From positions 66,649 to 130,648 of the forward strand of contig JACRHV010000004.1 of assembly GCA_016211945.1 (NCBI GenBank): DNA of 64,000 bases. The letters run 5' to 3'. Within the stretch, counting starts at the first letter, position 1. The number at the start of each line of letters is the position of its first letter. Shown piece by piece: positions 8,408 through 63,978 of this stretch. The notes below the pieces were generated by a model, which saw only the letters and a list, made by a program, of their open reading frames with translations, searched no databases and was not told where the DNA came from. Position numbers and translations under genes: made by a program. This DNA is from Minisyncoccota bacterium. Its GTDB lineage: Bacteria > Patescibacteriota > Microgenomatia > UBA1400 > UBA12028.

Positions 8408-9892
8408 TCATTTGGAGAGAAGAAACAGAGTGATTGATTTGTTCGTGACCATCAGTGTTTCAAGTCTCTTTGCGTACTTGGGTCCAAACTGCGTTACTTC
8501 CCAATGCGGAAGGTTTATTGGGTCTTTTTCCCCTTCTTCCCGTATCACATAGAGTACATCAGCATCTTGATATCTGTACTCGCTTACCGGTATATATCCA
8601 TCTCGCTCGAGTAAAAACCGATATTCATATCCCAAACCTGTCATGCCGTCGGAGCTGTCCTTAAAAATTGTAAATCGCTTGATCCCTCTTACATCGATAT
8701 CTTGCTCTATTGCATGAACCACTCGCGTAAGATTTGATAATGTCCGATATGTTGGTGAGTACAATGGAAATAATTTTGGTATCCATTGCACAAGGATGAG
8801 CAGCACAACTCCACTCATCATCAGTTTTATTTTCGATACATGTCCAATCATGAAAGATACAAAAAGCAATACGACGGTGCAAGGAACAATGAGATAGTAT
8901 GAGAATAAATATCCCTTATAGATCATGAGTAAACCGAGAACAGAACTTGTGAGAATGGTCAACACACCAGCATACGTATATGATGTATGTGATCTTGCTT
9001 TTTTTCTCTGCTTCCAGATTGTTATGAGACCTAAGCCTACTGCGATAAGAATCGCACCCTGTGTCCAGATATTTCCTCCAATGAATTGGAGAACCTTCTC
9101 AGTTTTTTCTGCGAGCGTCCAGTGCGGCAACGTACTGACAATACCCCCTCCCCGTGCCGATAAAAGAATGTAGGAAAGAAATGCTCGGGAATTGATGAAT
9201 CCGTGTCGAAGATCAAAAAGAAGAAGTGGGGAGGCCATGAGAAAAACTCCAAACATGTGCATACATGTTTGCCACACTTTTGCCCATATTTTTTTCTCAC
9301 CGTACACCAGAATAGAAACAACATACCCCGGAAATAACAGCAATGCGCTAAAATGCAGATGAAGAAATAGCCCAAACGAGACACCCGTTACGATGGACCA
9401 AAATGTTTTTGGCCGCTCCAATGACTTTATGAGCGTAGCAACAAAAAGAACAACAACGATTGAAAGCATCGGTTGATGCGTTGCACCACGACTCGCGGAA
9501 ACAAGAAGCGGTTGGAACATAAACAGCAGTGCGAATACAATTCCCGCAGAATACGATCCATACTTTCGCTGTACATGAAATCCCAAAAGTAAAGTAAAAA
9601 CCGCTAACACCACAAAAAGTAAAGAAATAATCTCCGGCACAAAGCCAAAGACGCGATAGCACAATGCAATAGCATAGAAATACAGCGGACCGAGGTAAAA
9701 CCCTCCAACGCTTGCCTGCGCCCCGAGTAATGTCAACTTCCCATGGAGGATTCGCAAAGCAAACAGACTATCTCTGCCAAAATCACTATCGAATTGAATA
9801 CTTGAAAAAAGGCCGTATATTCGAATAAAAAATGCAATGACACAGAGAAAAATGAGAAATACTCTGATATACGATGAATAACTTCTCTTCAT
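8408..9892 (-). CDS. polytopic membrane protein, putative GT-C-like glycosyltransferase (uncharacterised family; paralog of 59679..61166 and 61167..62699)
   Basis: 494 aa with more than 10 helices. The N-terminal loop motif FDSDFGRDSLFALRILHGKLTLLGAQASVGGFYLGPLYFYAIAL is shared with the two other paralogs. Confidence 0.5.
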   Translation of the reverse strand: MKRSYSSYIRVFLIFLCVIAFFIRIYGLFSSIQFDSDFGRDSLFALRILHGKLTLLGAQASVGGFYLGPLYFYAIALCYRVFGFVPEIISLLFVVLAVFTLLLGFHVQRKYGSYSAGIVFALLFMFQPLLVSASRGATHQPMLSIVVVLFVATLIKSLERPKTFWSIVTGVSFGLFLHLHFSALLLFPGYVVSILVYGEKKIWAKVWQTCMHMFGVFLMASPLLLFDLRHGFINSRAFLSYILLSARGGGIVSTLPHWTLAEKTEKVLQFIGGNIWTQGAILIAVGLGLITIWKQRKKARSHTSYTYAGVLTILTSSVLGLLMIYKGYLFSYYLIVPCTVVLLFVSFMIGHVSKIKLMMSGVVLLILVQWIPKLFPLYSPTYRTLSNLTRVVHAIEQDIDVRGIKRFTIFKDSSDGMTGLGYEYRFLLERDGYIPVSEYRYQDADVLYVIREEGEKDPINLPHWEVTQFGPKYAKRLETLMVTNKSITLFLLSK

Positions 9893-26604: not shown

Positions 26605-28002
26605 ATGCACAATTCAATACTTAAGAATATATCTTGGCAAACGTTATACCAATTTTTAGCAAGTGGTTTAGGTTTATTATTCAACATTATTTTAGCTAGA
26701 ACAATTTCTCAGTTTGAGTTTGGTACATTCAATTACATCATATCCATCCTTTCAATTTCCACACTTTTTCTTGAACTGGGGATACCCACTTATTTTTGGA
26801 GAAAATGGAGCACCGATATTTCGAAAATAAATCAGGATATAAGTTCATATTTAGTCGGTAGAGTCGGTATTGCTATACCAATTAGTTTTTTTCTTTTCTT
26901 TTATGTTTTTTTCATTGATCGATTTGTAAGCTTAGAATTTTTACTAGCCTACATTTATTTTTTACTTGACATTTTTGTACAACCAACACGACTTTTCTTT
27001 TCATCTCAAAATAAATATCACAAAACATTTATTATCGATGGTTTAGAAAGGTGCATATCATTAGGTTTAGGCATCTTATTGCTCATTTTGCATTATCCTT
27101 TACGAAAAGTATTTTTAGGATTCATATTTGGACGATTGACCTCAATTCTTTTGTGCTATGTTTTAAATAAAAATGTTCGATCATTATCTTTTTCCTTTAA
27201 GGGAATTCGTAATATCATTCATCTTTCCATACCACTCTTTATGATTGGGATATTTTCTACTTTGTATTTCCGCATCGATACACTTATGATTCGGTACCTC
27301 CTCGGTATGCAGGACGTTGCCATATATATGGCCGCATACAGACTCCTAGATGGAGGAGCTCTTATACCTGGAATTCTTACTACTGCAACAATGCCATTAA
27401 TTGTAAAACTCTATCATGACAAGGAAAAAAAGAAATTAACTCTTCTATTTCATAACATGATGATAGTATTGGCAATTCCAGCGCTATATATTGCATCAGT
27501 TTGTTTACTTTTTGCTCCAAATATTATTCCATTAATCTTTGGTCCAGAATTTAATAGTTCTATTCAAATCTTACGAGTACTTGGCTTAAGTTCAGTACTA
27601 TTATTCCTCACATACCCACTTACCCATTTTATGGTCGCAAATAAACAGGAGACTTACTATGTGAAGGTGCTGGTATTACTTACAGTAACCAACATTGTGT
27701 TTAACATTCTACTAATTCCGAAGATTGGCATACTTGGATCGGCATTAGCAACACTTTTGTGTGAACTTTTATCATTAATTTTTTTGTACCATAAAGTTCA
27801 GATTAAAATTCCAATCAAGATATTTTTAAAACTATTTTTCTCCATTTTTATTGCAACACTCATAACACTTATGCTTCCATTTCCATGGTATATCAATATT
27901 TTTTGCTTGGGTATTTTGTATTGTTGTATACTATTAATAGTAAAAATAGTAACTATACAAGAAGTTTTTTTGTACTTACGCGGAATATTAGTCAATGATT
28001 AA
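26605..28002 (+). CDS. polysaccharide biosynthesis protein, Wzx-type flippase (MOP superfamily)
   Basis: 465 aa with about 12-14 TM helices. N-terminus ILKNISWQTLYQFLASGLGLLFNIILARTISQFEFGTFNYIISILS is characteristic of Wzx/RfbX. Confidence 0.8.
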   Translation: MHNSILKNISWQTLYQFLASGLGLLFNIILARTISQFEFGTFNYIISILSISTLFLELGIPTYFWRKWSTDISKINQDISSYLVGRVGIAIPISFFLFFYVFFIDRFVSLEFLLAYIYFLLDIFVQPTRLFFSSQNKYHKTFIIDGLERCISLGLGILLLILHYPLRKVFLGFIFGRLTSILLCYVLNKNVRSLSFSFKGIRNIIHLSIPLFMIGIFSTLYFRIDTLMIRYLLGMQDVAIYMAAYRLLDGGALIPGILTTATMPLIVKLYHDKEKKKLTLLFHNMMIVLAIPALYIASVCLLFAPNIIPLIFGPEFNSSIQILRVLGLSSVLLFLTYPLTHFMVANKQETYYVKVLVLLTVTNIVFNILLIPKIGILGSALATLLCELLSLIFLYHKVQIKIPIKIFLKLFFSIFIATLITLMLPFPWYINIFCLGILYCCILLIVKIVTIQEVFLYLRGILVND

Positions 28003-35008: not shown

Positions 35009-35788
35009 TTATTTTATTATTAAGTACGCACGAACAATAAACTTGGCGTGAAGTTTATGCAATTCTAATAAGATAGGATTTGTTGTGTATCTCTTCAACA
35101 CCATAACCTCTTCTTCAAATTGATTCACAAACTGAGATCTGCCCTTTGATTGTTGATGAATACGAAAAACGGATAAAGCTTCAGGCATGACATATAAAGG
35201 ATATTTTTGTATCAATCTCAACCAAAAATCATAATCCATGCAATAGTGCAGCGACACATCGAATATTCCAATCTCTCTCATCGCACCACGTCGCCAAAAC
35301 GTACTTGGTTGTGCAATGCTATTTGCAATACCTAGAGTAAAGAACGTTGGTACTTTCCGTAACATCTTCTTATACCAACGAACATATTCATGTATTCTTT
35401 TCCCTCGTCCATTTACGATAAAATAATCTCCCGTCACCCACATAGCTTTAGGATTATCTGCAAAAAAAGCCGCAACTTTTTGCAATGTGCCAGGGAGGTA
35501 ATAATCATCTGAGTTCAAATACCCGATAATGTCGCCGTGCGATCGTTCAATTCCTTTATTAATGGCATCGGCTTGTCCCTTGTCCCTCGTACTTTCCCAC
35601 AATACTCTTTTTCCGTATGATCTTAAAATGTTTACAGAACCATCGGTTGATCCGCCGTCCATAACAATATATTCAACTCGTGGGTAATCTTGTTGTACGA
35701 CACTCTCAATTGTTTGTGGGAGAAACGATGCTTGGTTGTAACTTGGTGTGATGATACTAATGGTTGGAGATTTTACGTTTGTTGGCAT
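35009..35788 (-). CDS. family 2 glycosyltransferase
   Basis: ISIITPSYNQASFLPQTIESVVQQDYPRVEYIVMDGGSTDGS...YLNSDDYYLPG. Confidence 0.8.
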   Translation of the reverse strand: MPTNVKSPTISIITPSYNQASFLPQTIESVVQQDYPRVEYIVMDGGSTDGSVNILRSYGKRVLWESTRDKGQADAINKGIERSHGDIIGYLNSDDYYLPGTLQKVAAFFADNPKAMWVTGDYFIVNGRGKRIHEYVRWYKKMLRKVPTFFTLGIANSIAQPSTFWRRGAMREIGIFDVSLHYCMDYDFWLRLIQKYPLYVMPEALSVFRIHQQSKGRSQFVNQFEEEVMVLKRYTTNPILLELHKLHAKFIVRAYLIIK

Positions 35789-36128
35789 ACATCGCTCTTT
35801 CCCTAATCATGTGTTCTAATTTTTTCTCCAGTCGCTTGAAGTACATGCGATTCTGAAAAGTGAAAAAAACAACGATCATCAGTGCAACAATAACGAGTAG
35901 ATCAAATACTCGGGAGATATGCAGTGTCTCTGTTATACCTTGAAATGTCTGTGGAAACAGTGCGGTTAATCCGAATGCTGTCCACAGGCTTATCCAACAC
36001 CAAAACTCAAGGGCATCAAGATGTTGTTTTTTATGATGAATACGAACGACATACATCATAAAGAAGGCAAAAATAACAGAAATTACCTGCAATGGAATCA
36101 TAGCCCCACCCTCCATTGAAAGAGACAT
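35757..36128 (-). CDS. small 3-4 TM membrane protein, DUF2304/GtrA-like partner of a polyprenol-phosphate GT2
   Basis: 123 aa. Hydrophobic segments MIPLQVISVIFAFFMMYVV, FWCWISLWTAFGLTALF, VFDLLVIVALMIVVFF, then a basic tail. It overlaps both neighbours by about 31 nt, so the start may be a later Met. Confidence 0.5.
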   Translation of the reverse strand: MSLSMEGGAMIPLQVISVIFAFFMMYVVRIHHKKQHLDALEFWCWISLWTAFGLTALFPQTFQGITETLHISRVFDLLVIVALMIVVFFTFQNRMYFKRLEKKLEHMIRERAMYANKRKISNH

Positions 36129-36757
36129 CGCGCGATATGCGCCGCATCAATCGCGGTCATTCCCTTTTCTGCATCATGATAAATCGCATCAATCTCGATG
36201 ATCGAGAACGGCATCCTCAACTTCGCCACACGTACTGCAATCTCGGTCTCAACCTCATACCCCGCCGAGTTCCATTGGAGCTTGGCATACGCTTTTTTTG
36301 ACATTGCTTTGTATCCCGACGGAATGTCTGGAATATATCGTCCAAATAATACATTAAGCAATACTGAGGCAAGTCTGTTTCCAAGGAACTTCATCATTGG
36401 TGTTGTCGGGCTGAATTTTCTCACACCAAACACTACTTGATTTCCCTGCTTTAATGCATCAAAGAATTTAGGAAGTTCTGCTACGTCATGCTGATCGTCT
36501 GCATCCATAAAAACTACCGCGTCTGCCTTTATTGTATGAAAAACGTAGTCGCACGCTGTGCGCAACGCCGCCCCCTTGCCAAGGTTCGACTCGTGTACAA
36601 GAACGTGATCTGTATATCGTCGTGCAATCTGCGCAGATTTGTCTCGAGAACCATCGTCAACATAGACAATATTCGAGCTGTATTGTTTCACTTTCTTTAA
36701 TACAGCCCCCAAATACTTCTCTTCGTTGTATCCCGGAATGACAACATAAATGAACAT
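36098..36757 (-). CDS. polyprenol-phosphate glycosyltransferase, GT2 (DPM1/ArnC/GtrB-like)
   Basis: 219 aa. IYVVIPGYNEEKYLGAVLKKV...VYVDDGSRDKSAQIA...NLGKGAALRTA...VFMDADDQHD. Its short length and the adjacent small membrane partner fit lipid-carrier monosaccharide synthases. Confidence 0.7.
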   Translation of the reverse strand: MFIYVVIPGYNEEKYLGAVLKKVKQYSSNIVYVDDGSRDKSAQIARRYTDHVLVHESNLGKGAALRTACDYVFHTIKADAVVFMDADDQHDVAELPKFFDALKQGNQVVFGVRKFSPTTPMMKFLGNRLASVLLNVLFGRYIPDIPSGYKAMSKKAYAKLQWNSAGYEVETEIAVRVAKLRMPFSIIEIDAIYHDAEKGMTAIDAAHIARCLFQWRVGL

Positions 36758-37906: not shown

Positions 37907-37910
37907 ACGC

Positions 37911-46462: not shown

Positions 46463-47962
46463 TCACTCGCGTACATCCTCAAGTATTTTTACGGTATATT
46501 TTTCCTTATTCTGTGCATCAATTTGAGCTGAAAATCGAAAATGTCCGAAAGACTTTACTTGTGATAACCCAAGGTTGTCGAGAGGATAATATTGAACGGA
46601 CGATCTAAAAATATCAGGATTTACTGCCAAATAAAAAAGCGGGTAAATATACGCGTAGTGTGTATCCCCATATACTACAACGTTCATATCTTGTGATCTC
46701 TGTTTCTCTACTTCCAATAATGCACGTTGAGTTCCCACCCCCCACTCAATTTGGGGATGTGTAGAAAATTCACAAAGATACAGACGCATATACAACGACA
46801 CTTCAATAAGAAGTATGCATGTCATGAGAAAAGCAAAAGTCTTGTTGTATGTGATAAGCCATCTCATTCCAATTGCCGCAAATATGACAAACATATACAG
46901 AAAAAAGAGCATGCGTGTAGCTTGCGGTGCGTCGATTGTGATGGCAGAGGCTAGGGGACTGATGAGAAGAGATCCGTACAACAATACTCGCTGCTTGTGT
47001 TGCGGATAGATTTTCCATGCAAAAGTTATGCCTATCGCAAACAACAGCACCAAGCTCCAAGACATATGTCCCCAACCCGGTGGTTGATGCCAAGGATTAC
47101 TTCCACCACCTTTCACTAAAAATTGCGGATCATATGATGAAAAATAATTGCGTGTGAGTGTGGGGATAACAAAAAATAATGGATTTGATAACACCCTTTG
47201 TATTGAGTATGTTTCGGAATTTGCTCGAGCTTGTCTTGACTGTTCCATGAGCTGTTGATTAGAAAAGATCGTGATATTCCCTTTTCCTTTTGTCGCGGGA
47301 AAAACAAGTGCAAATACAAGAATACCAATACCAACAAAAAGTAAAGGTTGAAGATAGATGCGTTTTTGTGCAAAAAAGAGGAGACCTACAATTCCCGGAA
47401 GTAATACAAGTGGCGCATTGTACGTGAGTAATGAAAGCATCATTGCAACAGTTGAAAGTACAATACAAATTCCTCTCTTATCTCCCGCCAAAGTAAGTGA
47501 GAAAACAAAAAAGAACAACGCAAGATTAGCTTCAAAACCAACGTGACTGTAATGAATGGCCCAAGGTGTTAGTGAGATGAAAAAAGCAGTAAGAAGCCCA
47601 AAAACCTTATCTTTCGTGATCTGTAACACAAGAAAATAACTTATGAGGATGAGAAGAATGCCCGCGATCAAAGAGGGTACTCGAACAACCCATTGATTCA
47701 ACCCAAAGATTGAGACAAACGGGATGAGTGAGTAAATGTATCCCGCCAATTTATAGTCACCAAAGGATCGAAAAACGATCGGCCATGATACTCCCCACTC
47801 ATCCATACCCGTTTTTAGTAGTGAATATGCGTTGTATCCCAAAGCCGCTTCATCACGATTCAGAGAACTGGGAATCATTCCAAATCCTAGAAGACGCAGA
47901 AAAATACCAACAAAACATATGATGAGAAGAATCCATGTTGTGTATTTGTGTATATATTTCAT
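46463..47962 (-). CDS. PMT_2/ArnT-like GT-C membrane glycosyltransferase (tandem paralog 1 of 4)
   Basis: 499 aa. Loop-1 motif SSLNRDEAALGYNAYSLLKTGMDEWG...SFGDYKLAGYIY and a later NPWHQPPGWG. Confidence 0.7.
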   Translation of the reverse strand: MKYIHKYTTWILLIICFVGIFLRLLGFGMIPSSLNRDEAALGYNAYSLLKTGMDEWGVSWPIVFRSFGDYKLAGYIYSLIPFVSIFGLNQWVVRVPSLIAGILLILISYFLVLQITKDKVFGLLTAFFISLTPWAIHYSHVGFEANLALFFFVFSLTLAGDKRGICIVLSTVAMMLSLLTYNAPLVLLPGIVGLLFFAQKRIYLQPLLFVGIGILVFALVFPATKGKGNITIFSNQQLMEQSRQARANSETYSIQRVLSNPLFFVIPTLTRNYFSSYDPQFLVKGGGSNPWHQPPGWGHMSWSLVLLFAIGITFAWKIYPQHKQRVLLYGSLLISPLASAITIDAPQATRMLFFLYMFVIFAAIGMRWLITYNKTFAFLMTCILLIEVSLYMRLYLCEFSTHPQIEWGVGTQRALLEVEKQRSQDMNVVVYGDTHYAYIYPLFYLAVNPDIFRSSVQYYPLDNLGLSQVKSFGHFRFSAQIDAQNKEKYTVKILEDVRE

Positions 47963-51194: not shown

Positions 51195-51204
51195 CTCTTT
51201 TTTC

Positions 51205-52725
51205 CTAGAGTTGCACGATGCGGAACACCACCGACCCATCTGGGTAGTAGATTTCCTTCACGATGTGTTCTGCATTGGCCGGAATTTCCTGTGGTGTTCC
51301 GATAAGCAGCAGACTTTTTCTGTTCCTATCTTCATCCCATTTTATATCTCGAATTTCGTAGTTTGCCAACGCACCCTGATTGTATTGTATCGGGGTGAGT
51401 CGCTTGAAAAACACCATGTAGATGTATGGTTGACCGTATGCGCTTGTGAGAAGTACCTTCTCCACATCCTTCTCTTTTGACCGAGCGTACCGAATTGCCT
51501 GTTCGTATCCGTACTGAAAATCTTTTGCTGCCACGATAGTGTAGATGTGTACATACCAATATCCATATATCACTGTCTGCAACACGACGAGTATTATCGA
51601 AATATATACAAATATCTTTTTCTTTTTTTCCGTAAAATACTCATACCAAAACATCCAACCAAATGCCGCAATAATCTGAACCCACGGTACAATGCCGTGT
51701 ATTCTGTTGCTGTTTGGTACCTCATTGCTCAGTGTTGCAGGCAAAATGCCGATAAGTACGCACAGGAACAACCAAGAATATTTCCTGTATACCTTCTTTT
51801 TCCAAAAGGAGAATATTCCACTGATCACAAAAAGGAATTCGAGATATGAGAGGATGCCGAAAGTACCATTTCCGTGACGCAAAGAATCCGTCTTCCCAAA
51901 GAGGAGAAACACTGGGTCAAGGTGAGTGAGTACGTTCTTTGTAATAACACGTCCTATTTCCCCCGGAGACTTGAGATTGTTCTTCGTCGAGATTGCTGAT
52001 GTCATAGAAAATCGCTCCACCGCCTTCCCGTATATCATTTCCTTTGCAAGTGGAAAGAGGAGTAATGCGCTCACTATACAGGCGAGGAATACCCAAACTT
52101 TCTGCTTTTTGATTGATGAAAAACACCAAACTCCTAGGACTAAAAGCAATAAGGGAACAGCAATTTTTGTGCTGTGATACGCGTACAACGACATGACAAA
52201 GCTCACTCCTGACAAAAGATATAACCATGGAACGTCTGCTGCATACAACAATAGTGCAGTTCCAACTGATACAAGACTTACCGCGATTCCAGACTCAAAT
52301 CCGATACGAGCAAAGTGAATATTGAGTGGTGAGAGCGCGACAGTTATCATGGCAACCAAGGCGAACACCTCCTGTTTCATCATTTTTCGTGCGATACCAT
52401 AAGTAGCAACAACCGTAATCAAACTTGCTACTGCCATGGGGAATCGAACTGCAAATCCATTGAGACCGAGAAGCGATGTCGATACTGCATCCGCATAGAT
52501 AGCAACTGCTGCCTTGTAGTCTCCAAAAGACTTGAAGGTAATTGGCATTCTGTTTAACCATTCGTCACGGTGCACTGTTGCAATGCCGAACCCGTTATAT
52601 CCAATTGCAGCCTCGTCCCAACTGAGTCCGACCGGAATTGAACCCAACCATGAAAAGCGGAGTATGAAAGCTATGAAAAGAACCGTGAAAAAGACGCGAT
52701 ACTTTACCAAAGTCTTATATATCAT
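51205..52725 (-). CDS. PMT_2/ArnT-like GT-C membrane glycosyltransferase (tandem paralog 4 of 4)
   Basis: VGLSWDEAAIGYNGFGIATVHRDEWLNRMPITFKSFGDYKAAVAIY and a later GKTDSLRHGNG. Start placed at MIYKTLVK (ATGA overlap with the next gene). Confidence 0.7.
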   Translation of the reverse strand: MIYKTLVKYRVFFTVLFIAFILRFSWLGSIPVGLSWDEAAIGYNGFGIATVHRDEWLNRMPITFKSFGDYKAAVAIYADAVSTSLLGLNGFAVRFPMAVASLITVVATYGIARKMMKQEVFALVAMITVALSPLNIHFARIGFESGIAVSLVSVGTALLLYAADVPWLYLLSGVSFVMSLYAYHSTKIAVPLLLLVLGVWCFSSIKKQKVWVFLACIVSALLLFPLAKEMIYGKAVERFSMTSAISTKNNLKSPGEIGRVITKNVLTHLDPVFLLFGKTDSLRHGNGTFGILSYLEFLFVISGIFSFWKKKVYRKYSWLFLCVLIGILPATLSNEVPNSNRIHGIVPWVQIIAAFGWMFWYEYFTEKKKKIFVYISIILVVLQTVIYGYWYVHIYTIVAAKDFQYGYEQAIRYARSKEKDVEKVLLTSAYGQPYIYMVFFKRLTPIQYNQGALANYEIRDIKWDEDRNRKSLLLIGTPQEIPANAEHIVKEIYYPDGSVVFRIVQL

Positions 52726-53630
52726 GTGCGTACCTTTTTTATCACAGCACCATCGGAAAGAGACCACAGTGGTGACACTTTCTTTCGTTTTTCAACCACT
52801 TCATGCATTTGAAGTAATGCCTGGCAGAATCCTAAAATAATGCGTCCTCGCGATCGCCATCCTCCAACGATCAAATGATAGGGAAGCCAAAGAAGATGTG
52901 AAAGAAAGATTTGCGGATCAGTGACATTCTTCCACAAAAAAAGGAAGCTATTTTTGTATGACATCACGTCCATAACCTCTTTTCCAAAAACCGTGGAGTT
53001 TGTTGATTCGTGTCCATGTACGACGAAAGCTTTAGGCTCAAAGAGTACGAACCATCCATGCTTCCACGCGCGATAACTGATATCAATATCTTCGTAATAT
53101 GCAGGTCTGTAGAGATTATCCATACCACCGATCAGCTGCCAATACGATTTTCTCACCATCATGCTACCGCCAGTAGCCCACATGGTCCTACCGGGTTGAA
53201 AATTTTGTGCTCGATTATGCATAAACATACCTCGAGAAAAACGACCAGTGCTCTTCCCGCTTATTTGACCGGAAGGTGCGTGTTCTAAACATCCGACAGC
53301 AAATATGTCAATATCTTTAAAATGCGGAAGAAGGTATGCTTTTACGTTTGCATTGGGTGATACATCATTATTTAGGAGCAATATAAATTCGTTTTTTGCT
53401 TGTTCTATCCCATTATTGCATGTATCAGCGTACCTTTTGTTCTCGTTATTTTTCACTATTTTCACTCGAGGGTAATTCTTGCTCAAGTAACTCATTGAGT
53501 CATCGGTAGAGGCGTCGTCAACCACGATAATCTCATCATTTTTCTCGAGTGCTAAAATTACACTTGGCAAATGCTTCTCAAGTAAGTCTCGACCATTGAA
53601 GTTTGGTATCACGACACTGATGTTCATCAA
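52722..53630 (-). CDS. family 2 glycosyltransferase
   Basis: ISVVIPNFNGRDLLEKHLPSVI...IIVVDDASTDDS...LLNNDVSP. Confidence 0.8.
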   Translation of the reverse strand: MMNISVVIPNFNGRDLLEKHLPSVILALEKNDEIIVVDDASTDDSMSYLSKNYPRVKIVKNNENKRYADTCNNGIEQAKNEFILLLNNDVSPNANVKAYLLPHFKDIDIFAVGCLEHAPSGQISGKSTGRFSRGMFMHNRAQNFQPGRTMWATGGSMMVRKSYWQLIGGMDNLYRPAYYEDIDISYRAWKHGWFVLFEPKAFVVHGHESTNSTVFGKEVMDVMSYKNSFLFLWKNVTDPQIFLSHLLWLPYHLIVGGWRSRGRIILGFCQALLQMHEVVEKRKKVSPLWSLSDGAVIKKVRT

Positions 53631-55591: not shown

Positions 55592-57649
55592 TTATTTTCT
55601 CCCATGCAGACGGTCTTGTACAACAAGATAGAGATTCCACCATAATTCCCGCGGGTCTCGCAGACATGAAAGCGGAGATTTTTTGCAGTTTGTGACAAAT
55701 CGAATAGAAGGAAAATGCGTGGTTTCGTTGTCTATGATGAGATCTACCGCTGTACTTCCCGCCTGCTTCCCATCAATATCAATAAAATACTCTCCCTTCG
55801 ATGTTTCGGGTTGCTGAATCGTTATCTGTCCACAAATCTCTTTTTTGCATCTGATCATTGGATTCTGTTGCGCCATTGTGGATCGTCTTTGATCGTCTCT
55901 AAGATGTATTACGATACGAATAGGGTTTCTCCCCATCATTGCATAGGCCGTATCAAGTCTTATCGTGGACTGTTGCATGCTGATCGGATTTCTTTGTTCT
56001 TCTGGAGCATATGCCTGACGGTAGGTAACATCTTGTCCTCCATGGATGTTCTTTATCTCAGGAAAATACGTGACTCCCCGTTGTGTTTTTCGCTCACGCA
56101 GTATCTTTGAACCATCCTTCATCATCTCGAGAAGATCTCCATTAAGCACAGACAGTTTGGGTAGTTCGGGACCTTCAAACTCAAAATAGTCATTCGTAAA
56201 AAATATGTTCACTTCATTATTGTTCTCTGTTTCGTACGACAACGCGATCGAGTTCGAATCTCGCACACTTTTGATCTTGCCATTTTTCTGCGCCATGGGA
56301 AACACCAAAGCCGCGGTGTCTTGATAAAGATCATTCAATATCGCGTTTTTTTCTGTTCGTACCGGCGTTTTCTTCGTCATTTTCCACCATATCTTATCCC
56401 ACAGTTTTGTTGGGAGATATGCGGGTTGTTCAGTATTTCTAAATCGAGACCCATCCAAGACAAACGGCGTGATCCAGTACGCATTTGGGGTACTCACCGG
56501 CATCGTGGCGTAGGGATCTTCCAGTGCTGAACTATAGATACGAAGATCGGTGAGTTTTACCTGATGTCCTGTTCGAATCAGTCGCGCTCGATATGATGGT
56601 GTCGATATCCAAAATGCCTGATGTGTTACTCCATTACTTTCTGTCTCTCCTTCAGAAAATTGTATAAAGGGTTGTGCTAGTAATCGATGTTTTACTTCCT
56701 TTGCGTATGTTGTGATCGTGGGCTGCCAAACATCCGAATGCTCTTTCAGAATTTTTTCGATATATGCTAATTGACGTATGTACTCTCGCTGGACATCCGA
56801 TGGCATTGTGTTTTCCAAACCAATGACCGTGGCACCGTTCCCCTTCACTAGTGATTGGTCGACTAGATGGACAAAGTATTCAAAACCACGAGAAGCAAGT
56901 GTGTAGTCATTCGGTTGGGAGGTGGTACTGCTCGTTGTATCTCCATAGTTCAGTACTGGATCAGGAATGGTTTGTCGAATCATCACGAGTGGAAGTGTGT
57001 CTTTCCCCTGTGATGGAACAAGCGGCCATCGGGTACTTGGAAGGTATGGACCCTGGAAAGGTCCACCATACAAGGTATAACTATCGGTGCCCCATTGCTC
57101 GCGCGTCAGTTCGTGCACCTCTACTCCATACTGACTGGAAAGGTAGTTGAGCGACCACGCGTCGATCATCCATGCAACCGTTATCTTTGGAAAAACGGCA
57201 AACGTCTTCTTGTATTGAGTCATGTATGTATCAATAAGAGCTTTTCGATCCTTCACGGAATATCCCAATAAATACGCATTTTTTGCTTTATACCATCGAT
57301 CTTCTGGGCCTTCATAACGAACGTGTGCATCGACCGCTAAACTCGGAATAATCTCTAAAAATGCCGCTGCTTCTATTTCCTGAGATGGCAACTGCTGGTG
57401 TATCAGTGAAACCATTGCCTCGTTTTGCAACGCATCGTATCGAAACGCAAATGCGGCTTTCAAATGATGCTGGGTTATCGAGTCCACCTGCAATCGTAGA
57501 GCGTCAACAGATCCGGGATCACAGCACGATGCACCTCGAACCTGATTGATGATGAGAAGTGCGGATGAGATTTCTTGTGATTGTGCGCGCACATATTGCG
57601 GAAAAAATGAAAAGAAAAAGAGTATGAAAAAAAGAAAAAACCGAGTCAT
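55592..57649 (-). CDS. secreted or envelope protein of unknown function (685 aa) with an N-terminal signal peptide
   Basis: MTRFFLFFILFFFSFFPQYVRA|QSQE gives a Sec signal with an AXA-like cleavage site. The remainder is hydrophilic with an S/T-rich patch DTTSSTTSQPND and no recognised catalytic motif. Confidence 0.5.
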   Translation of the reverse strand: MTRFFLFFILFFFSFFPQYVRAQSQEISSALLIINQVRGASCCDPGSVDALRLQVDSITQHHLKAAFAFRYDALQNEAMVSLIHQQLPSQEIEAAAFLEIIPSLAVDAHVRYEGPEDRWYKAKNAYLLGYSVKDRKALIDTYMTQYKKTFAVFPKITVAWMIDAWSLNYLSSQYGVEVHELTREQWGTDSYTLYGGPFQGPYLPSTRWPLVPSQGKDTLPLVMIRQTIPDPVLNYGDTTSSTTSQPNDYTLASRGFEYFVHLVDQSLVKGNGATVIGLENTMPSDVQREYIRQLAYIEKILKEHSDVWQPTITTYAKEVKHRLLAQPFIQFSEGETESNGVTHQAFWISTPSYRARLIRTGHQVKLTDLRIYSSALEDPYATMPVSTPNAYWITPFVLDGSRFRNTEQPAYLPTKLWDKIWWKMTKKTPVRTEKNAILNDLYQDTAALVFPMAQKNGKIKSVRDSNSIALSYETENNNEVNIFFTNDYFEFEGPELPKLSVLNGDLLEMMKDGSKILRERKTQRGVTYFPEIKNIHGGQDVTYRQAYAPEEQRNPISMQQSTIRLDTAYAMMGRNPIRIVIHLRDDQRRSTMAQQNPMIRCKKEICGQITIQQPETSKGEYFIDIDGKQAGSTAVDLIIDNETTHFPSIRFVTNCKKSPLSCLRDPRELWWNLYLVVQDRLHGRK

Positions 57650-58602: not shown

Positions 58603-59420
58603 ATTGCCTTTATTTCCTGAGTAATGACTGTAATCATTTCCTTGTAACTCATATCTTTTATATTTAATTCTTCAAAAAATCTTGGTTTTTCTATACTAAG
58701 TGGAATGACGAGATTATCATTTTTTGGTTGTACTTCTTTTTTAAAGTTGCTTAATATATCTTTTGCTAACTTGTATTGTGTTACAACCTCTTTTATAAAA
58801 ATTGGAATAATTTTCCCCGTGATGTTTCTTCTCACAATACGTTCAACAACCTGAGAAATATGACCAATATATGTTGGCTGAAACTCCCATGATGTATCCC
58901 AATATGTTGGTTTATCTTGAGACATTGCCTTTAAAATCCTATTAAATGGCCTATCATTTGTCACATTAGGACTCATTCCAACGATATAAGAAGGTCGAAT
59001 AATTGTCCATTTCCCATGAGATTTTTGAATAATTTCTTCCGAATTCTTTTTTGTTTTACCATATATATTCCTGGGATTCAGAACTGCCAATGATGAAATA
59101 TATATCAAATGTGATTGATGTTTCATTGCCACGTCCGCAATATATGATGTGGCTTTTTCATTAAGATTCTTTGCCTCTTCTGGGTGTGATTCGCACCAAC
59201 TTCCACTTCCATTATTCGCTGTATGGACAATATAATCAGGTTTTAATTCTTTAACAGTTTTTTCCACCGCAATTGGATCTGTAATATCTAATTGAATAGA
59301 ATTTTCCCAAAATGGTGAGCTGTGATATTGTGGCACAATATCAAGTGTCATATGCAAATCTTGATAAATACGGGCACCCAGATATCCATTAGAACCCAAT
59401 AACAATATTTTGCTCCGCAT
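58599..59420 (-). CDS. NAD(P)-dependent sugar-nucleotide reductase/epimerase, RmlD (dTDP-4-dehydrorhamnose reductase)-like
   Basis: 273 aa. ILLLGSNGYLGARIYQDL...PDYIVHTANNG...LIYISSLAVLNPRNIYGKTKKNSEEI follows the RmlD substrate-binding-domain pattern. Confidence 0.55.
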   Translation of the reverse strand: MRSKILLLGSNGYLGARIYQDLHMTLDIVPQYHSSPFWENSIQLDITDPIAVEKTVKELKPDYIVHTANNGSGSWCESHPEEAKNLNEKATSYIADVAMKHQSHLIYISSLAVLNPRNIYGKTKKNSEEIIQKSHGKWTIIRPSYIVGMSPNVTNDRPFNRILKAMSQDKPTYWDTSWEFQPTYIGHISQVVERIVRRNITGKIIPIFIKEVVTQYKLAKDILSNFKKEVQPKNDNLVIPLSIEKPRFFEELNIKDMSYKEMITVITQEIKAI

Positions 59421-59425
59421 ATCTT

Positions 59426-59638
59426 CTATTCCTTCACAAATTCAAATCGAGGGACTTTTTTTCCATCCACCTCAATGTGTTCTATAAACATTTTTACTGG
59501 TCTTATCCATAACTGACCGTTTTCATTTGGATAAAGGCAATAATATGTCACGTATTCTTCAAGAGTTTCACTGTGCTTTGCAACTTCGATGACTTGATAA
59601 TATTTCCCTTTGTAGTGTCTATACGTTCCACATTTCAT
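59426..59638 (-). CDS. DUF1653-family small protein
   Basis: 70 aa. YRHYKGKYYQVIEVAKHSETLEEYVTYYCLYPNENGQLWIRPVKMF matches the DUF1653 consensus (Y-x-H-Y-K-G...Y...H-S-E-T-x-E...V-x-Y...W-x-R-P-x-x-M-F). Confidence 0.7.
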   Translation of the reverse strand: MKCGTYRHYKGKYYQVIEVAKHSETLEEYVTYYCLYPNENGQLWIRPVKMFIEHIEVDGKKVPRFEFVKE

Positions 59639-59678
59639 ATCTTCATTTCATTTTACCACCCAACACCTCCTCTATGAT

Positions 59679-61166
59679 ATGCTTTCAGATATGGGAATTC
59701 TGCTTGCAATCTACGCGGTTCTTCTTCGACTCATTCCTATTTTAAATAATCGCTTCTCATTCATGTATGACAACGCGAAAGACTCATTGGTTATGCTGGA
59801 GATGTTCCAATATCATAAGCCAGCACTCCTTGGACCAACGACAAGTTTGGAAGGATTATTCTACGGGCCAGCGTGGTATTACATCGCATTGCCTTTTAAC
59901 ATTCTTGGTCAATTTCACCCATTTGCGAGTGTTGCGATGGTGTTATTCTTGGTCGCACTGAGTACCTTCGTATTGACTCGAGTTTTTGGAAAAACCACAG
60001 GATTTCTTTTTGCCGTATCAATTGGCGCCATCGGAACACAAAATACTGCATGGACACCATACATGACTACTTTCCCCATGATTGCTGTATTTATACTTCT
60101 TTCCTCTATGAAACATCAAAAAAAGATTTCTTTGTGGCTATCCGCACTTCTTGGTCTTTTTGTTTCACTCATGTTCCATTTTCAAGTCGCATATGCCGTT
60201 GTTTTTCTTCCGCTCGTTTTTCTCGTTCTCATCAAAGAAAAAATTCCATTCGCATGGAAACACTGGTGCGTCGCGTTCTTCGCGTTCCTTCTCCCTATGC
60301 TCCCACAAGCTTTCTTTGAGACACGACACGACTTTCTTCAAACACGTTCAGTGATCCGTTACATTCATACATATTGTTCTGAGTCACAAAAAATACAACC
60401 CAATTCCTCTGGCATATTGCGAGTAAAAGAAGTTACTGAGTATATGTTTGATAACGCAAAACTCAGTGTATTGTCTTTTGACCAAGCATGGATTGCCACG
60501 ATCGTTCTTCTTTTTATTGGTATTAGTATAGTAAAAAGAAAAAAGAATTTTCTTGTCCGCACCTCACTCACTTTTATTGTCGGAAGCTTTCTTTTCTATC
60601 TCGTTCTCCCCATCAAACCTTACTATCTCACCGCTCTTATTCCTGTGTGGATCATACTTTTTTCACAATGTTTACAAACAGTATCCAAAAATTCTCGATC
60701 ATTCATTCTTGTGAGTTATGCAGTACTTAGTGTCGTTCATTTGCAACAGGGTATAGATCGAGCAAAACAATACGAAAAAACGGATGTCTTTTTTCTTGGT
60801 CCAAAAATGCAGGCGATTCAAACCGCATATGAGATGAGTGAAGGAAAACCATTTGCTTCATACCAGTATGTTCCAGAAATTTACGACTACACCTATCAAT
60901 ACCTTTATCTCGTGGGTCAGCAAAACGGGAAACAACTTCCGACAGAGTTTAGTTATGCGGCCGGAGAATACACCTATATTCCACAAAAACATGTACAACG
61001 CTCAACAACCCGGCCAACCTTCACCATACTTATTGTTGAAAAACCAAAAACCAACTGGCTGTACGATCAATGGAAAGATCGTGTAACAAAAAATCTCGAA
61101 ATTATTGAAACTCGAAAAATTAATGACGCGCTTACGGTGTACAAAACTATCCCCAAAAAATTGTAA
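59679..61166 (+). CDS. polytopic membrane protein, putative GT-C-like (uncharacterised family; paralog of 8408..9892 and 61167..62699)
   Basis: 495 aa. Shared loop motif FSFMYDNAKDSLVMLEMFQYHKPALLGPTTSLEGLFYGPAWYYIALPF. Confidence 0.5.
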   Translation: MLSDMGILLAIYAVLLRLIPILNNRFSFMYDNAKDSLVMLEMFQYHKPALLGPTTSLEGLFYGPAWYYIALPFNILGQFHPFASVAMVLFLVALSTFVLTRVFGKTTGFLFAVSIGAIGTQNTAWTPYMTTFPMIAVFILLSSMKHQKKISLWLSALLGLFVSLMFHFQVAYAVVFLPLVFLVLIKEKIPFAWKHWCVAFFAFLLPMLPQAFFETRHDFLQTRSVIRYIHTYCSESQKIQPNSSGILRVKEVTEYMFDNAKLSVLSFDQAWIATIVLLFIGISIVKRKKNFLVRTSLTFIVGSFLFYLVLPIKPYYLTALIPVWIILFSQCLQTVSKNSRSFILVSYAVLSVVHLQQGIDRAKQYEKTDVFFLGPKMQAIQTAYEMSEGKPFASYQYVPEIYDYTYQYLYLVGQQNGKQLPTEFSYAAGEYTYIPQKHVQRSTTRPTFTILIVEKPKTNWLYDQWKDRVTKNLEIIETRKINDALTVYKTIPKKL

Positions 61167-62699
61167 CTATTCTTCTGTATCCTTTGGTTTTCGAACCTGT
61201 ATTCGATGATTGTTCATAACAAACTCTTTCACCAGTATTGTATGGTTGTCCTGATACTCACGAAAATTCTTGGTAAACTCAGGACCGATATCAAAATTCG
61301 GTTCATATATTGTGATATGCGTTTGGAAAGGCCCATCTGATCTTGGTAATATTTCATCACCGATATACCCATCAGCTGCAAACCCATACCACTGTGGAAT
61401 GACAACATCACGTTTACTCTTGTACCAAGAAAAATAATAACTCCAGGCAGATCGAATTCCATACGGCGTTTCAAATATGCTCACGGTAAATGGAGTATTC
61501 TGTGGAACCTGTGCATATACCGCATCAAGCACCTGCTTTCTCTGCCGCAGCAATACTCCATCCTGCACCTGCACATACGCATGATTGTCACGAGCTTGAA
61601 CATATATCATTCGTAGTTGGCTTCCTATCGCGAGAAAAATAATGATTGTGGCAATAACACTACGCATGTTCTTTGTATATGTTGTGAGAACATATGTAAA
61701 AAGAATCATCATAAGTATTCCCATTCCTATGAAGAAAAACTTTTCTGGAGGACGACCTGTAAAGAAAAGTACAACAGACCATAATAATGGGCCTAATAAA
61801 AAAAACACTTGAGAAAGATTTGATGTTCTCTTGGAATACCATACCGCACCACAAATTATACATATTAGGAATAGTCCAGCAAAAAGAGTTGGGAATCCCC
61901 AAACATTTTTTTGAAATAATGTGACCATCATTTCCCCATATTTCACTAACGGAAAAGTCGTCTCTGTTTGCACCGGAGGTTTTGTGTGCTGTACGCGCGA
62001 AAGCACATATCCGATAAGTCCACGAATAACCTGTCCGCGAAATTTCACTTCTGCGAGAAGAAGCGGGAGTACGCCTAGTATTGCTCCACCGTGAAATATT
62101 ATCCAATCACGAATATTTGATTTTTTTATCGCAAAAAAAGAATAGACAAAAAAGAGTAAAAATCCCATCACAAGTTCGGACTGAATAATTAATCCAAAAA
62201 GAATTCCAGCAATAAAGATATTTCTCACAAGTCTTTGTTGATTCCATAGGAAATAGAGAAACCATGGAAAAAGCGGAATAACAAGAACGGGATTGCTTAA
62301 CCATTTCGCATATGAAACAATTTCATACGAAAACAAGAAAAGTATCGATGATATGAACGCAACCTGGTGAGAAAAAAGACTACGGGATAAAGCATATACA
62401 CCGCTCACTGCGCATATATTCAAAAAAACAAAAAAGAGAAGCGGAAGCCAAGGATCCCATTTTGATAGAGCATATAATGGAGCAATGATGTAGTAAAAAA
62501 GTGGGCCATGGTGAACACCTGGTATATCGCTCACCGGACCGAGTAGTTTTAGATTTTTATGTAATACCATCTCGCGAACAACAAGCGCATCGCGCGCTTG
62601 ATCGTATGGAAAAATACTTTCGTAAATCCCTGGATAAATTCGGAGAAAAATTCCAAAAAAGATACACAATCCCAGTAAGAACTTTTGCCAAAGACTCAT
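61167..62699 (-). CDS. polytopic membrane protein, putative GT-C-like (uncharacterised family; paralog)
   Basis: 510 aa. FPYDQARDALVVREMVLHKNLKLLGPVSDIPGVHHGPLFYYIIAPLY. Its stop codon directly abuts the stop of its convergent paralog. Confidence 0.5.
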   Translation of the reverse strand: MSLWQKFLLGLCIFFGIFLRIYPGIYESIFPYDQARDALVVREMVLHKNLKLLGPVSDIPGVHHGPLFYYIIAPLYALSKWDPWLPLLFFVFLNICAVSGVYALSRSLFSHQVAFISSILFLFSYEIVSYAKWLSNPVLVIPLFPWFLYFLWNQQRLVRNIFIAGILFGLIIQSELVMGFLLFFVYSFFAIKKSNIRDWIIFHGGAILGVLPLLLAEVKFRGQVIRGLIGYVLSRVQHTKPPVQTETTFPLVKYGEMMVTLFQKNVWGFPTLFAGLFLICIICGAVWYSKRTSNLSQVFFLLGPLLWSVVLFFTGRPPEKFFFIGMGILMMILFTYVLTTYTKNMRSVIATIIIFLAIGSQLRMIYVQARDNHAYVQVQDGVLLRQRKQVLDAVYAQVPQNTPFTVSIFETPYGIRSAWSYYFSWYKSKRDVVIPQWYGFAADGYIGDEILPRSDGPFQTHITIYEPNFDIGPEFTKNFREYQDNHTILVKEFVMNNHRIQVRKPKDTEE

Positions 62700-62702
62700 A
62701 TA

Positions 62703-63257
62703 TTACTTTACTGCCTTACAAAAAGTATTAAACCCAAACTCAAACATCTGAACATTCACTTTTTGAAATCCAACATTTTTCATGACCTTCCGCAGTCTTT
62801 CTTCCGTAAAATAATTTTCGTGCTGTTCAATCATTTCTTTTCGCACAAGACCTACCTTCGCAAAAAGATCTAGGAGCGGTTTACTTGAGGGAGAAGGAAC
62901 CGTGATCAGTAACATTCCACCTTTTTTTAGAATGCGAAAACATTCACGCACAATATCTTTTGGATGTTTCATATGTTCCAATACCGCCATCATCGTAACA
63001 ATATCAGCAGATTGAGAAGGAAAATCTATTTTTTTTTGGAGATCCTGACAAAGTATTCGAACGTTTCCATATGAGTAACGACTTACAACGCAATCAATCC
63101 CTATACAGGCCTTCATGTCATCTTTTATTCGATCAATAAAAACTTGTGGCTGGTCACAGCCAATGTCCACAAGAACACTATCTTTTTTTAGATACGGCAA
63201 TATTTTTCGAATACGGAGCTCCTGGAATAGAGGTTCAAACAATGTAATTTTTTTCAT
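62703..63257 (-). CDS. class I SAM-dependent methyltransferase
   Basis: VLVDIGCDQPQVF (motif I)...ILKKGGMLLITVP. Confidence 0.7.
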   Translation of the reverse strand: MKKITLFEPLFQELRIRKILPYLKKDSVLVDIGCDQPQVFIDRIKDDMKACIGIDCVVSRYSYGNVRILCQDLQKKIDFPSQSADIVTMMAVLEHMKHPKDIVRECFRILKKGGMLLITVPSPSSKPLLDLFAKVGLVRKEMIEQHENYFTEERLRKVMKNVGFQKVNVQMFEFGFNTFCKAVK

Positions 63258-63258
63258 A

Positions 63259-63978
63259 TCAAATTGTGGAGAGGCGGTATTTTAGAATTGCACCTACCGC
63301 TAGTATCCAATCAATTCCTGTGATTTTCTTTCCTTCTGCATATGTTCGACCAATGTATGTTATCGGTATTTCAAGAATTTTGACACCTCGCAATAATAAT
63401 TTGCATGTAATTTCCGGCTCTATACGAAAATCATTTTCGGACAATTTTAAATCCTTCATTAGTTGTGTTGGCAAAATTTTATAACATGTCTCCATATCAG
63501 AAAGAATCGTGTCATACAAAACATTAATGAATAGATTTAGGAGTTGGTTGCCAACATAATGCCAATAATACATATTCGTTCGTGCTCCAAAAAAGCGTGA
63601 TCCATATACAACTTCAACTCGTCCTAGACGTATTGGTTCCAATAATTTTGGTATTTCTTTTGGATCATATTCCAAATCTGCATCTTGAATAAGAATATAA
63701 TTCCCTTTTGCCATGCGCAATGCAGTCTGAATTGCTTTTCCTTTTCCTTGATTTTCTGTGTGTGAATATACATGGAGTCGTTTGACCTTTTTCTTTTTTG
63801 CCAAAACTGCCGTTTTGTCTTTTGATGCGTCATCTACAACAATTACCTCAAATACATCTTTTTGTGCAAGTACTTGAGTTAATACTTGTTGAATTGTTTT
63901 TTCTTCGTTGTATGCCGGGATAATAACAGTAAGTCGGATAGAATCCTTCATATTTTCAATTTCCTTCGAACTTTCCAA
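63259..63978 (-). CDS. polyprenol-phosphate glycosyltransferase, GT2 (DPM1/ArnC-like)
   Basis: LTVIIPAYNEEKTIQQVLTQVL...VIVVDDASKDKT...NQGKGKAIQTAL...LIQDADLEYDP. 239 aa. Confidence 0.7.
   Translation of the reverse strand: MESSKEIENMKDSIRLTVIIPAYNEEKTIQQVLTQVLAQKDVFEVIVVDDASKDKTAVLAKKKKVKRLHVYSHTENQGKGKAIQTALRMAKGNYILIQDADLEYDPKEIPKLLEPIRLGRVEVVYGSRFFGARTNMYYWHYVGNQLLNLFINVLYDTILSDMETCYKILPTQLMKDLKLSENDFRIEPEITCKLLLRGVKILEIPITYIGRTYAEGKKITGIDWILAVGAILKYRLSTI

Follow-up and report, generated by a model that had tools for sequence, protein, structure and literature searches.

Probable ArnT/PMT_2-like GT-C glycosyltransferases encoded by three diverged paralogs in a glycan-biosynthesis locus of a Candidatus Pacebacteria genome

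Genes A, B, and C and their predicted fold

We analyzed a 64-kb stretch of contig JACRHV010000004.1 (the window), which has a GC content of 39.6% and consists almost entirely of a glycan-biosynthesis locus. The locus carries many GT2 and GT4 glycosyltransferase genes, RmlD-like and 4,6-dehydratase-like genes, a DegT aminotransferase gene, acetyltransferase genes, and a gene for a Wzx/MOP flippase. We focus on three genes for membrane proteins, called A, B, and C here, that probably encode ArnT/PMT_2-like glycosyltransferases of the GT-C type:

59679..61166, plus strand: gene A, predicted A-type GT-C glycosyltransferase of 495 residues, with about 11 transmembrane helices and a C-terminal extracytoplasmic domain
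61167..62699, minus strand: gene B, predicted B-type GT-C glycosyltransferase of 510 residues, the sister lineage of A with the same architecture
8408..9892, minus strand: gene C, 494 residues, the third lineage of the same clade

All three open reading frames (ORFs) are present where a first-pass annotation, made from the sequence alone, had placed them. The NCBI start of A lies four codons later, probably at 59691, and gives a protein of 491 residues. A, B, and C are each 100% identical to proteins encoded on a 331-kb contig of a metagenome-assembled genome (MAG) of Candidatus Pacebacteria, a member of the Microgenomates group of the candidate phyla radiation (CPR). NCBI lists A as "hypothetical protein HZA34_01470, Candidatus Pacebacteria" and both B and C as "glycosyltransferase family 39 protein." A has no Pfam or NCBIfam hit. 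In the family described as uncharacterised, only the lineage of A lacks annotation; B and C already carried names at NCBI.

The three proteins had been grouped as paralogs, and alignments bear this out. Pairwise BLASTP gave identities of 22% for A and B (E 9e-14), 24% for A and C (E 2e-13), and 28% for B and C (E 3e-13). Profiles built for each type aligned end-to-end with an HHalign probability of 100%, both for A-type against B-type (E 8e-59, 502 columns) and for C-type against A-type (E 1e-44, 471 columns). Judged from these alignments, A, B, and C are real, anciently diverged paralogs of one clade, 22-28% identical to one another.

We modeled the structure of A with AlphaFold2 from an alignment of A and 30 homologues (A1), which also served as the input for the A1 profile. 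The model reached a predicted local distance difference test score (pLDDT) of 94.2 and a predicted template-modeling score (pTM) of 0.91. A Foldseek search of the PDB with this model returned GT-C enzymes at all of ranks 1-25, among them ArnT, ALG12, ALG9, STT3/PglB, AftA, Pmt4, DPY19, EmbA/B/C, and AftD. The best match was ArnT 5f15 (E 9e-7, template-modeling score [TM-score] 0.60). We rejected a transporter reading; the first match outside the GT-C enzymes had a probability of only 0.25. B and C are tied to the same fold through the full-length profile alignments. The first-pass annotation had suggested a GT-C-like fold and named a transporter or other non-glycosyltransferase fold as the competing outcome. 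Since the top 25 matches are all GT-C enzymes, with no transporter among them, the competing outcome falls and the GT-C idea stands. At the level of the predicted structure, a GT-C fold of the GT-C_A class is confirmed for A.

Helices in the model, hydropathy, and the positive-inside rule together suggest a topology of about 11 transmembrane helices with the N terminus inside and the C terminus outside, close to the earlier estimate of about 10 helices. Short loops rich in Lys and Arg would lie inside. The C-terminal domain is predicted to lie outside, together with the first extracytoplasmic loop (EL1, residues 22-81), which includes D31 and D35, and with a second large loop (residues 217-269). 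The second loop is preceded by a conserved P209..F213-E-x-R-H217 segment.

We compared A, B, and C to PMT_2 proteins (PF13231). The window encodes canonical PMT_2 paralogs in a four-gene tandem array (46463-52767, with genes at 46463, 47959, 49560, and 51205) whose mutual identity is 25-30%, and the product of 5368-7095 matches canonical PMT_2 with an HHalign probability of 97.8%. B and C score 29.0 and 30.0 bits against the Pfam model, above its gathering cut-off of 26.1 bits, and A gives no hit at E ≤ 1. At a threshold of E ≤ 0.01, the model recognizes 20 (26%) of 78 representative A-type relatives, with a best value of 4.8e-11, and 74% escape it. The A-type and C-type profiles match canonical PMT_2 with HHalign probabilities of 98.2% (E 4.6e-14) and 96.9% (E 1.6e-10), in each case over about 220 N-terminal columns only. 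The N-terminal catalytic half is therefore homologous to that of the canonical proteins of the window (HHalign probabilities of 97-98%), whereas HHalign detected no similarity between these paralogs and the C-terminal half and C-terminal domain of A, B, and C.

These Pfam scores, profile alignments, and PMT_2 hits among A-type relatives indicate that a single clade at the edge of PF13231 contains A, B, and C as three old lineages. They argue against the earlier proposal of a family distinct from PMT_2; as far as the sequences allow us to judge, the separation is at the subfamily level only. The narrower point holds that the three proteins stand apart as a group from the canonical paralogs of the locus, because they match each other over their full length and the canonical proteins over the N-terminal half only. 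This clade has many members: the A1 profile retrieved full-length matches in 7,756 clusters (at 50% identity) at E ≤ 1e-3, and the stricter thresholds of E ≤ 1e-10 and E ≤ 1e-30 gave 5,209 and 1,510 clusters, respectively.

Conserved residues are concentrated in EL1 and in the C-terminal domain:

59760..59789, plus strand: FMYDNAKDSL, the EL1 motif of A, located with a regular expression and holding D31 (59769-59771, predicted catalytic residue) and D35
59853..59879, plus strand: GLFYGPAWY, a second EL1 motif of A (G59, G63, P64, W66, Y67, Y68)
62583..62612, minus strand: FPYDQARDAL, the EL1 motif of B; D33, R36, and D37 are invariant in the B-type alignment
9764..9793, minus strand: FDSDFGRDSL, the EL1 motif of C; D37, G39, R40, and D41 are invariant in the C-type alignment
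60774..61163, plus strand: C-terminal alpha/beta domain of A (residues 366-495, about 130 residues), predicted extracytoplasmic

The pattern F.[YS]D..[KR]D[SA]L has exactly three matches in the six-frame translation of the window, one each in A, B, and C. This first part of the signature described in the first-pass annotation is present in all three proteins; the downstream parts are looser than claimed, with LLGA and G-F-Y-L-GP-L-Y-F in C and GP-A-W-Y in A. The motif persists in a proper alignment. Across 120 A-type sequences, D31, G52, and P421 are invariant, and D35, G59, G63, P64, Y68, P209, F213, D403, Y406, and W465 are at least 90% conserved.

GT-C enzymes carry a proposed catalytic Asp just after the first transmembrane helix, in the first extracytoplasmic loop (PMC11127046). 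In the model of A, D31 lies at the start of a helix (residues 30-44) right behind the first transmembrane helix. It aligns with, or falls one residue away from, the invariant acidic residue of the canonical W-[DE]-E-A-A motif, both in a joint MAFFT alignment and in HHalign. The EL1 motif had been described as different from the PMT_2 signature. Its sequence does differ, with Y/S-D-x-x-[KR]-D in place of W-[DE]-E-A-A, but structurally it falls where the canonical [DE]E does. The catalytic-loop position is shared with PMT_2 proteins, as is G59, a residue that never varies among A, B, C, and the canonical PMT_2 proteins. The region around G59 aligns with the canonical "GDYK" segment, which in turn aligns with "KPPFHMW" of ArnT.

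The common C-terminal domain of about 130 residues is what distinguishes the A/B/C clade. It is conserved in the A-, B-, and C-type profiles, carries the invariant motifs PF..Y.Y.PE.YDY.YQ, LP.EFSY, and FLIVE, and was modeled on its own with a pLDDT of 91.2. It corresponds to no Pfam family. A Foldseek search of the PDB with the domain alone returned nothing at E ≤ 1e-3, the best match being at 0.058. Fragments of IF3 and of Rossmann-like methyltransferases appeared as possible relatives and were rejected as weak, inconsistent matches reflecting generic alpha/beta similarity (E ≥ 0.058, TM-scores of 0.2-0.4).

The A-B gene pair

A and B lie tail to tail, as described in the first-pass annotation, with no base between them:

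61166..61167, no strand assigned: point at which the stop codons of A and B meet (0-nt gap); the TAA of A ends at 61166 and the stop of B (CTA on the plus strand) begins at 61167

We examined the gene neighborhoods of 35 A-type loci, 32 from genomes and 3 from metagenomes, with flanks of 5-6 kb. A B-type orthologue is the immediate downstream neighbor of A in all eight loci of A's own clade (the window and L001-L007), a set that spans identities of 35-72% for A and 28-63% for B. The eight paired A-types form one clade in a neighbor-joining (NJ) tree. Weaker B-like neighbors of A-type genes occur in L010 and L011, and 25 of the 35 loci have no B-type neighbor in their flanks. B roots outside all A-types in the NJ tree, so the duplication that separated A and B is older than the whole A-type radiation.

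The adjacency of the two genes is better conserved than their orientation. Five of the ten pairs are convergent (the window and L006 with a gap of 0 nt, L003 with 3 nt, L002 with 6 nt, and L004 with a 47-nt overlap), and five are same-strand tandems (L001, L005, L007, L010, and L011). The two states are interleaved in the NJ tree. We considered whether the 0-nt junction is a special feature and rejected this, since abutting or overlapping ends are also seen in other convergent pairs of the window; four of the five others have gaps of 1, -26, -14, and +14 nt. A search for an inverted DNA repeat between A and B found only six matches of 14-28 nt (75-87% complementarity), none symmetric about the junction and all consistent with chance. 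The tail-to-tail layout had been read as a trace of an ancient inverted duplication. Given the labile orientation and the other convergent pairs that abut or overlap, an inverted duplication is not indicated. The abutting convergent layout reflects genome compaction and repeated local inversions and has no special function; the conserved feature is the adjacency of A and B.

The palindromic hairpin TTGGGAATCCCCAA (61889-61902) lies inside B, about 720 nt past the stop of A, has T-runs on both sides, and scores as terminator-like on both strands. Terminator-like sites are somewhat enriched in the region 59300-63300 (7 against 2.4 +/- 1.6 in shuffled sequences). The hairpin could stop a read-through transcript of A within the antisense strand of B.

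The two proteins could be subunits of an obligate heteromeric GT-C complex of the kind formed by Pmt1-Pmt2 in yeast or EmbA-EmbB in mycobacteria. Such a complex would be compatible with A and B acting as ArnT/PMT_2-like glycosyltransferases and would differ in quaternary structure. In those two systems, as here, two diverged GT-C paralogs are kept together, and embA and embB are also adjacent genes. The paralog heterodimers Pmt1-Pmt2 (6p25) and EmbA-EmbB (7bvf) are among the fold matches of A, both A and B keep the catalytic-loop invariants, and B-type adjoins A-type throughout A's clade. The A-B pair differs in that many pairs are convergently transcribed, which in five of ten loci precludes co-transcription. 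The 25 A-type loci without a B-type neighbor also speak against an obligate complex, and successive steps on one glycan would explain the adjacency equally well. We therefore regard an obligate A-B complex as possible but rather unlikely.

Donor-synthesis genes and the proposed pathway

The genes near the A-B pair and elsewhere in the window include candidates for making and exporting a lipid-linked sugar donor:

62703..63257, minus strand: S-adenosylmethionine-dependent methyltransferase (Methyltransf_23, 4e-19), immediately upstream of B in the same operon
63259..63978, minus strand: DPM1-like GT2 of 239 residues, predicted polyprenyl-phosphate-sugar synthase of the B operon (Glycos_transf_2, 4e-36)
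36098..36757, minus strand: second DPM1/GacI/PpgS-like GT2 (Glycos_transf_2, 3e-24; AglJ, 7e-29; PpgS, 7e-24)
35757..36128, minus strand: DUF2304 small membrane protein of the GacJ/Rv3632 family, predicted activator of the GT2 at 36098-36757 (PF10066, 1.8e-16; 60.8 bits against a cut-off of 25.5)
26605..28002, plus strand: Wzx/MOP-family flippase, candidate exporter of a lipid-linked sugar or glycan (Polysacc_synt, 2e-24; MatE, 2.5e-8; MOP flippase, 2.7e-11)

The best NCBIfam matches of the GT2 at 63259-63978 are AglJ (5e-37), a Dol-P-hexose transferase (2e-21), PpgS (2e-16), and ArnC (1e-12), all under their cut-offs. The order of B, methyltransferase, and GT2 genes is kept in L003, where the orthologue of this GT2 adjoins B; in L007 the orthologue follows an A-B-B array. 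Orthologues of the second GT2 (59-64% identical) flank A in L002, L004, and L006, with a DUF2304 gene and a further GT2 gene just beyond, and the GT2/DUF2304 cluster abuts A divergently in L002 and L004. A Polysacc_synt (Wzx-type) gene lies directly upstream of the A-B pair on the same strand in L001. We also found natural fusions of GT2 (PF00535) and PMT_2 domains, 713-745 residues long, in Patescibacteria among the relatives of C (P0250, P0252-P0254, P0256, P0258, P0264, P0268, P0270, P0275, P0276, P0279, P0286, and P0299). These fusions join a donor synthase and a transferase in one polypeptide.

The position of the A-B pair within the locus varies. In L002, L004, and L006, the pair sits between the GT2/DUF2304/GT2 cluster and an epimerase gene, flanks whose orthologues in the window are 35009-36757 and 38336-39235. 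In the window genome and in L003, the pair has moved beside the methyltransferase and DPM1-like GT2 genes. The old site in the window now holds an aminotransferase gene (36770-37906) and an ORF of 152 codons. This displacement of A-B relative to 35009-39235 is a local rearrangement of the glycan locus.

Similar sets of components are known from other bacteria. GacI, which synthesizes undecaprenyl-P-GlcNAc, is activated by the DUF2304 protein GacJ (bioRxiv 10.1101/180810), and Rv3632, the mycobacterial homologue of GacJ, plays the same role for PpgS (bioRxiv 10.1101/180810; PMC10821137; PMC11127046). Transfer of the sugar then takes place outside the membrane and is carried out by a GT-C enzyme in both the Gac and the mycobacterial system (bioRxiv 10.1101/180810; PMC10821137; PMC11127046). 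By component set (DPM1-like GT2, DUF2304 protein, candidate flippase of the Wzx type, and GT-C), the window resembles GacI/GacJ/GacK/GacL of Streptococcus pyogenes, the Gtr systems, and mycobacterial PpgS/Rv3632, and the locus also holds rhamnose-pathway-like genes. It differs in that the GT-C component is a conserved pair of paralogs (A and B) and in that about 35 kb separates the outermost components, which are not gathered in one operon. The linked DPM1/GacI-like GT2, DUF2304, and Wzx genes, together with the fusions, point to a multi-component extracytoplasmic glycosylation system.

We consider it likely that A, B, and C are ArnT/PMT_2-like GT-C membrane glycosyltransferases that move polyprenyl-phosphate-linked sugars to surface acceptors. 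From the linked GT2 genes, the fusions, and the predicted N-in/C-out topology, we infer that they would use a lipid-phosphate-linked donor on the extracytoplasmic face. The proposed pathway would begin at the cytoplasmic face, where a DPM1/GacI-like GT2 (63259-63978, or 36098-36757 with its DUF2304 partner 35757-36128) would load a sugar onto polyprenyl phosphate. The lipid-linked sugar would then be flipped outward, with the Wzx-type protein encoded at 26605-28002 as the candidate flippase. At the outer face, A, B, and C would each deliver the sugar to a separate site or acceptor in a cell-surface glycan or glycoprotein, with D31 in A, D33 in B, and D37 in C as the probable catalytic bases and the C-terminal domain helping in acceptor selection. 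The analysis shows the predicted fold, the homology, the residue conservation, and the gene linkage of these loci; the donor, the acceptor, the choice of flippase, and the parts given to individual residues are predictions drawn from them.

ArnT (GT83; 5ezm/5f15) is the closest point of reference for this pathway. It shares with A the GT-C_A fold and an acidic residue after the first transmembrane helix, its soluble C-terminal domain also lies on the outer face, and its polyprenyl-monophosphate-sugar donor is likewise made by a DPM1-like GT2 (ArnC). The canonical PMT_2 paralogs of the window reach ArnT by sequence (profile against 5ezm, E 0.0078), whereas the similarity of A, B, and C to ArnT is in the fold alone. 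ArnT is reported to have 13 transmembrane helices compared with about 11 in A, and the C-terminal domain of A has no significant match to any solved structure, including that of ArnT. For a CPR bacterium, lipid A would be an implausible acceptor.

Several observations weigh against assigning A, B, and C to this class. The TM-score between A and ArnT is only 0.60. Searches of all PDB chain sequences with A, B, and the A-, B-, and C-type profiles (phmmer and hmmsearch) matched no solved GT-C enzyme, ArnT included, with AftA the best at E 0.73, and no ArnT NCBIfam model hit A, B, or C. The link to GT-C enzymes therefore rests on Pfam, profile-profile comparison, and the predicted fold. In the MAFFT alignment, A has Y62, B has H64, and C has Leu in the column occupied by the lysine of the canonical "GDYK" segment. 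The donor-binding site may therefore differ from that of canonical PMT_2 proteins and ArnT, and the alignment hints at a modified site. Other points concern the gene neighborhood. A and B are convergently transcribed in the window and so do not form one operon, and the GT2 genes score under every NCBIfam equivalog cut-off. The Wzx gene lies 32 kb from A-B and could serve the main glycan pathway, and no GtrA-type flippase was seen among the window ORFs scanned.

The NCBI names of B and C would make these proteins true protein O-mannosyltransferases (CAZy GT39), which use polyprenyl-P-mannose to mannosylate Ser/Thr residues of secreted or S-layer/pilin proteins. The PMT_2 description, "Dolichyl-phosphate-mannose-protein mannosyltransferase," points the same way, as do the adjacent DPM1-like GT2 and the presence of Pmt4 and Pmt1-Pmt2 among the fold matches of A. 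However, the NCBI name stems from a generic PF13231-type model, and the PMT family model itself (PF02366, GT39) gives no hit at E ≤ 1 to any of the three proteins; canonical paralogs of the window do match it (e.g., 49560-51239 at 3.9e-11). The position of the GT39 DE motif reads Y-D-N-A-K-D in A, Y-D-Q-A-R-D in B, and S-D-F-G-R-D in C, so that a single acidic residue remains and D-x-x-[KR]-D stands in place of the DE dipeptide. Pmt4 ranks 13th among the structural neighbors of A (E 1.9e-3), of which ArnT (GT83) is the best. The GT2 and DUF2304 pairs are closer to HexNAc-P-polyprenol synthases (GacI/PpgS) than to mannose synthases, and the locus looks like one for polysaccharide biosynthesis. 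We find a GT39 activity improbable.

A more ambitious proposal would treat the A/B/C clade as a new GT-C family at the CAZy level, found largely in CPR/Patescibacteria and neighboring candidate phyla (at least 1,510 50%-identity clusters at E ≤ 1e-30). It would be defined by the D-x-x-[KR]-D loop, the missing "GDYK" lysine, and a C-terminal acceptor-recognition domain without a solved relative, and A and B would form an obligate heteromeric two-site machine that decorates the host-contact surface of ultra-small episymbionts. This combined proposal strikes us as doubtful.

A, B, and C could instead use oligosaccharides linked to polyprenyl diphosphate or monophosphate and act as en-bloc ligases or polymerases, similar to WpsJ/WpsH or to oligosaccharyltransferases. 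STT3/PglB is among the fold matches of A (E ~1e-4), lactococcal GT-C enzymes have been proposed to transfer polymers from C55-P (PMC10821137), and a Wzx-type flippase, typical of repeat-unit export, is present in the locus and directly upstream of A-B in L001. We rejected the specific reading as an oligosaccharyltransferase (STT3/PglB/AglB, GT66). A regular-expression search found no WWD[YWF]G motif in A, B, or C, and the TM-scores to PglB/STT3 (0.42-0.49) are lower than those to ArnT (0.60) and ALG12 (0.55), which are single-sugar transferases that use monophosphate donors. Tight linkage and fusion to DPM1-like GT2s is a hallmark of single-sugar polyprenyl-monophosphate donors. The missing motif, the lower TM-scores, and the GT2 linkage make an en-bloc or oligosaccharyltransferase role less likely, and we rate it as quite improbable.

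The version given in the first-pass annotation, a separate non-PMT_2 family with the tail-to-tail pair as a relic of inverted duplication, is highly improbable. In its favor, A has no Pfam or NCBIfam hit, the C-terminal domain is absent from canonical PMT_2 proteins, and convergent pairs with gaps of 0-6 nt recur in L002, L003, and L006; against this stand the PMT_2 scores of B, C, and a quarter of the A-type relatives, the profile matches and positionally homologous motifs, the mixture of tandem and convergent pairs within one clade, the chance-level DNA repeats, and the other abutting or overlapping convergent pairs of the window.

Genomic context, distribution, and significance of the clade

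The window encodes at least ten polytopic proteins of the GT-C type, at 5368-7095, 8408-9892, 31196-32965, 40462-42135, 46463-52767, and 59679-62699, and this set includes one PTPS_related member. At least ten GT-C genes in 64 kb represent a very heavy investment for a reduced CPR genome. Two further large polytopic proteins, of 685 residues (55592-57649, minus strand) and 669 residues (14614-16623, plus strand), were considered as additional members of the A/B/C clade and rejected, as they carry no GT-C signal. A 31%-identical orthologue of the first lies directly upstream of the A-type gene in L022. The second resembles the LA_3751/LA_3752 putative glycosyltransferase family weakly (E 3.6e-6, far under the cut-off).

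The start of C overlaps by 4 nt the stop of an upstream gene for a membrane protein of 553 residues (9889-11550, minus strand), which suggests translational coupling. This polytopic protein has no Pfam or NCBIfam family. We rejected it as a member of the A/B/C clade, as its HHalign match is a weak one to canonical PMT_2 only (67%, 107 columns). It may be a very divergent further GT-C or a partner of C. The RmlD-like gene and A are 258 nt apart, and a DUF1653 ORF of 70 residues (59426-59638, minus strand; E 2.3e-27) takes up most of this interval. A full-length homologue of glutamine-dependent asparagine synthase (19857-21701, plus strand; Asn_synthase, 2.6e-88) also lies inside the glycan locus, where it may serve as an amidotransferase for a sugar acid or cell-wall precursor rather than as a housekeeping AsnB.

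Many A-type loci lie on MAG contigs (TPA_asm) labeled Pseudomonadales, Gammaproteobacteria, or Limisphaerales (L005, L009, L011-L013, L015, L019, L020, L025, L027, L029-L031, L034, and L035). Their gene neighborhoods are CPR-like, and the labels look like mis-assigned taxonomy. The family reaches beyond Patescibacteria, since the complete genome CP011212 (L017), from TM6/Dependentiae, has one A-type gene. No papers came up in a search of the literature on GT-C enzymes in Patescibacteria, and one for CPR and mannosyltransferase returned general genome papers only.

The three proteins belong to a common type of enzyme, within a large, CPR-centered branch whose annotation is poor; B and C were already annotated and A was not. 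Their assignment does not change the general understanding of GT-C enzymes or of CPR envelopes. Its value lies with the lineage of A, which comprises thousands of metagenomic clusters that are nearly all called "hypothetical" and can now be assigned to the ArnT/PMT_2-like GT-C class. For this lineage, the likely catalytic Asp is located, and the genes are seen to travel with a B-type paralog and with GacI/GacJ-like donor synthases. The C-terminal domain, which lacks a solved structural relative, is a reasonable structural target for work on acceptor recognition. Together, these results provide a transferable annotation for the A lineage and a concrete set of genes for reconstitution.

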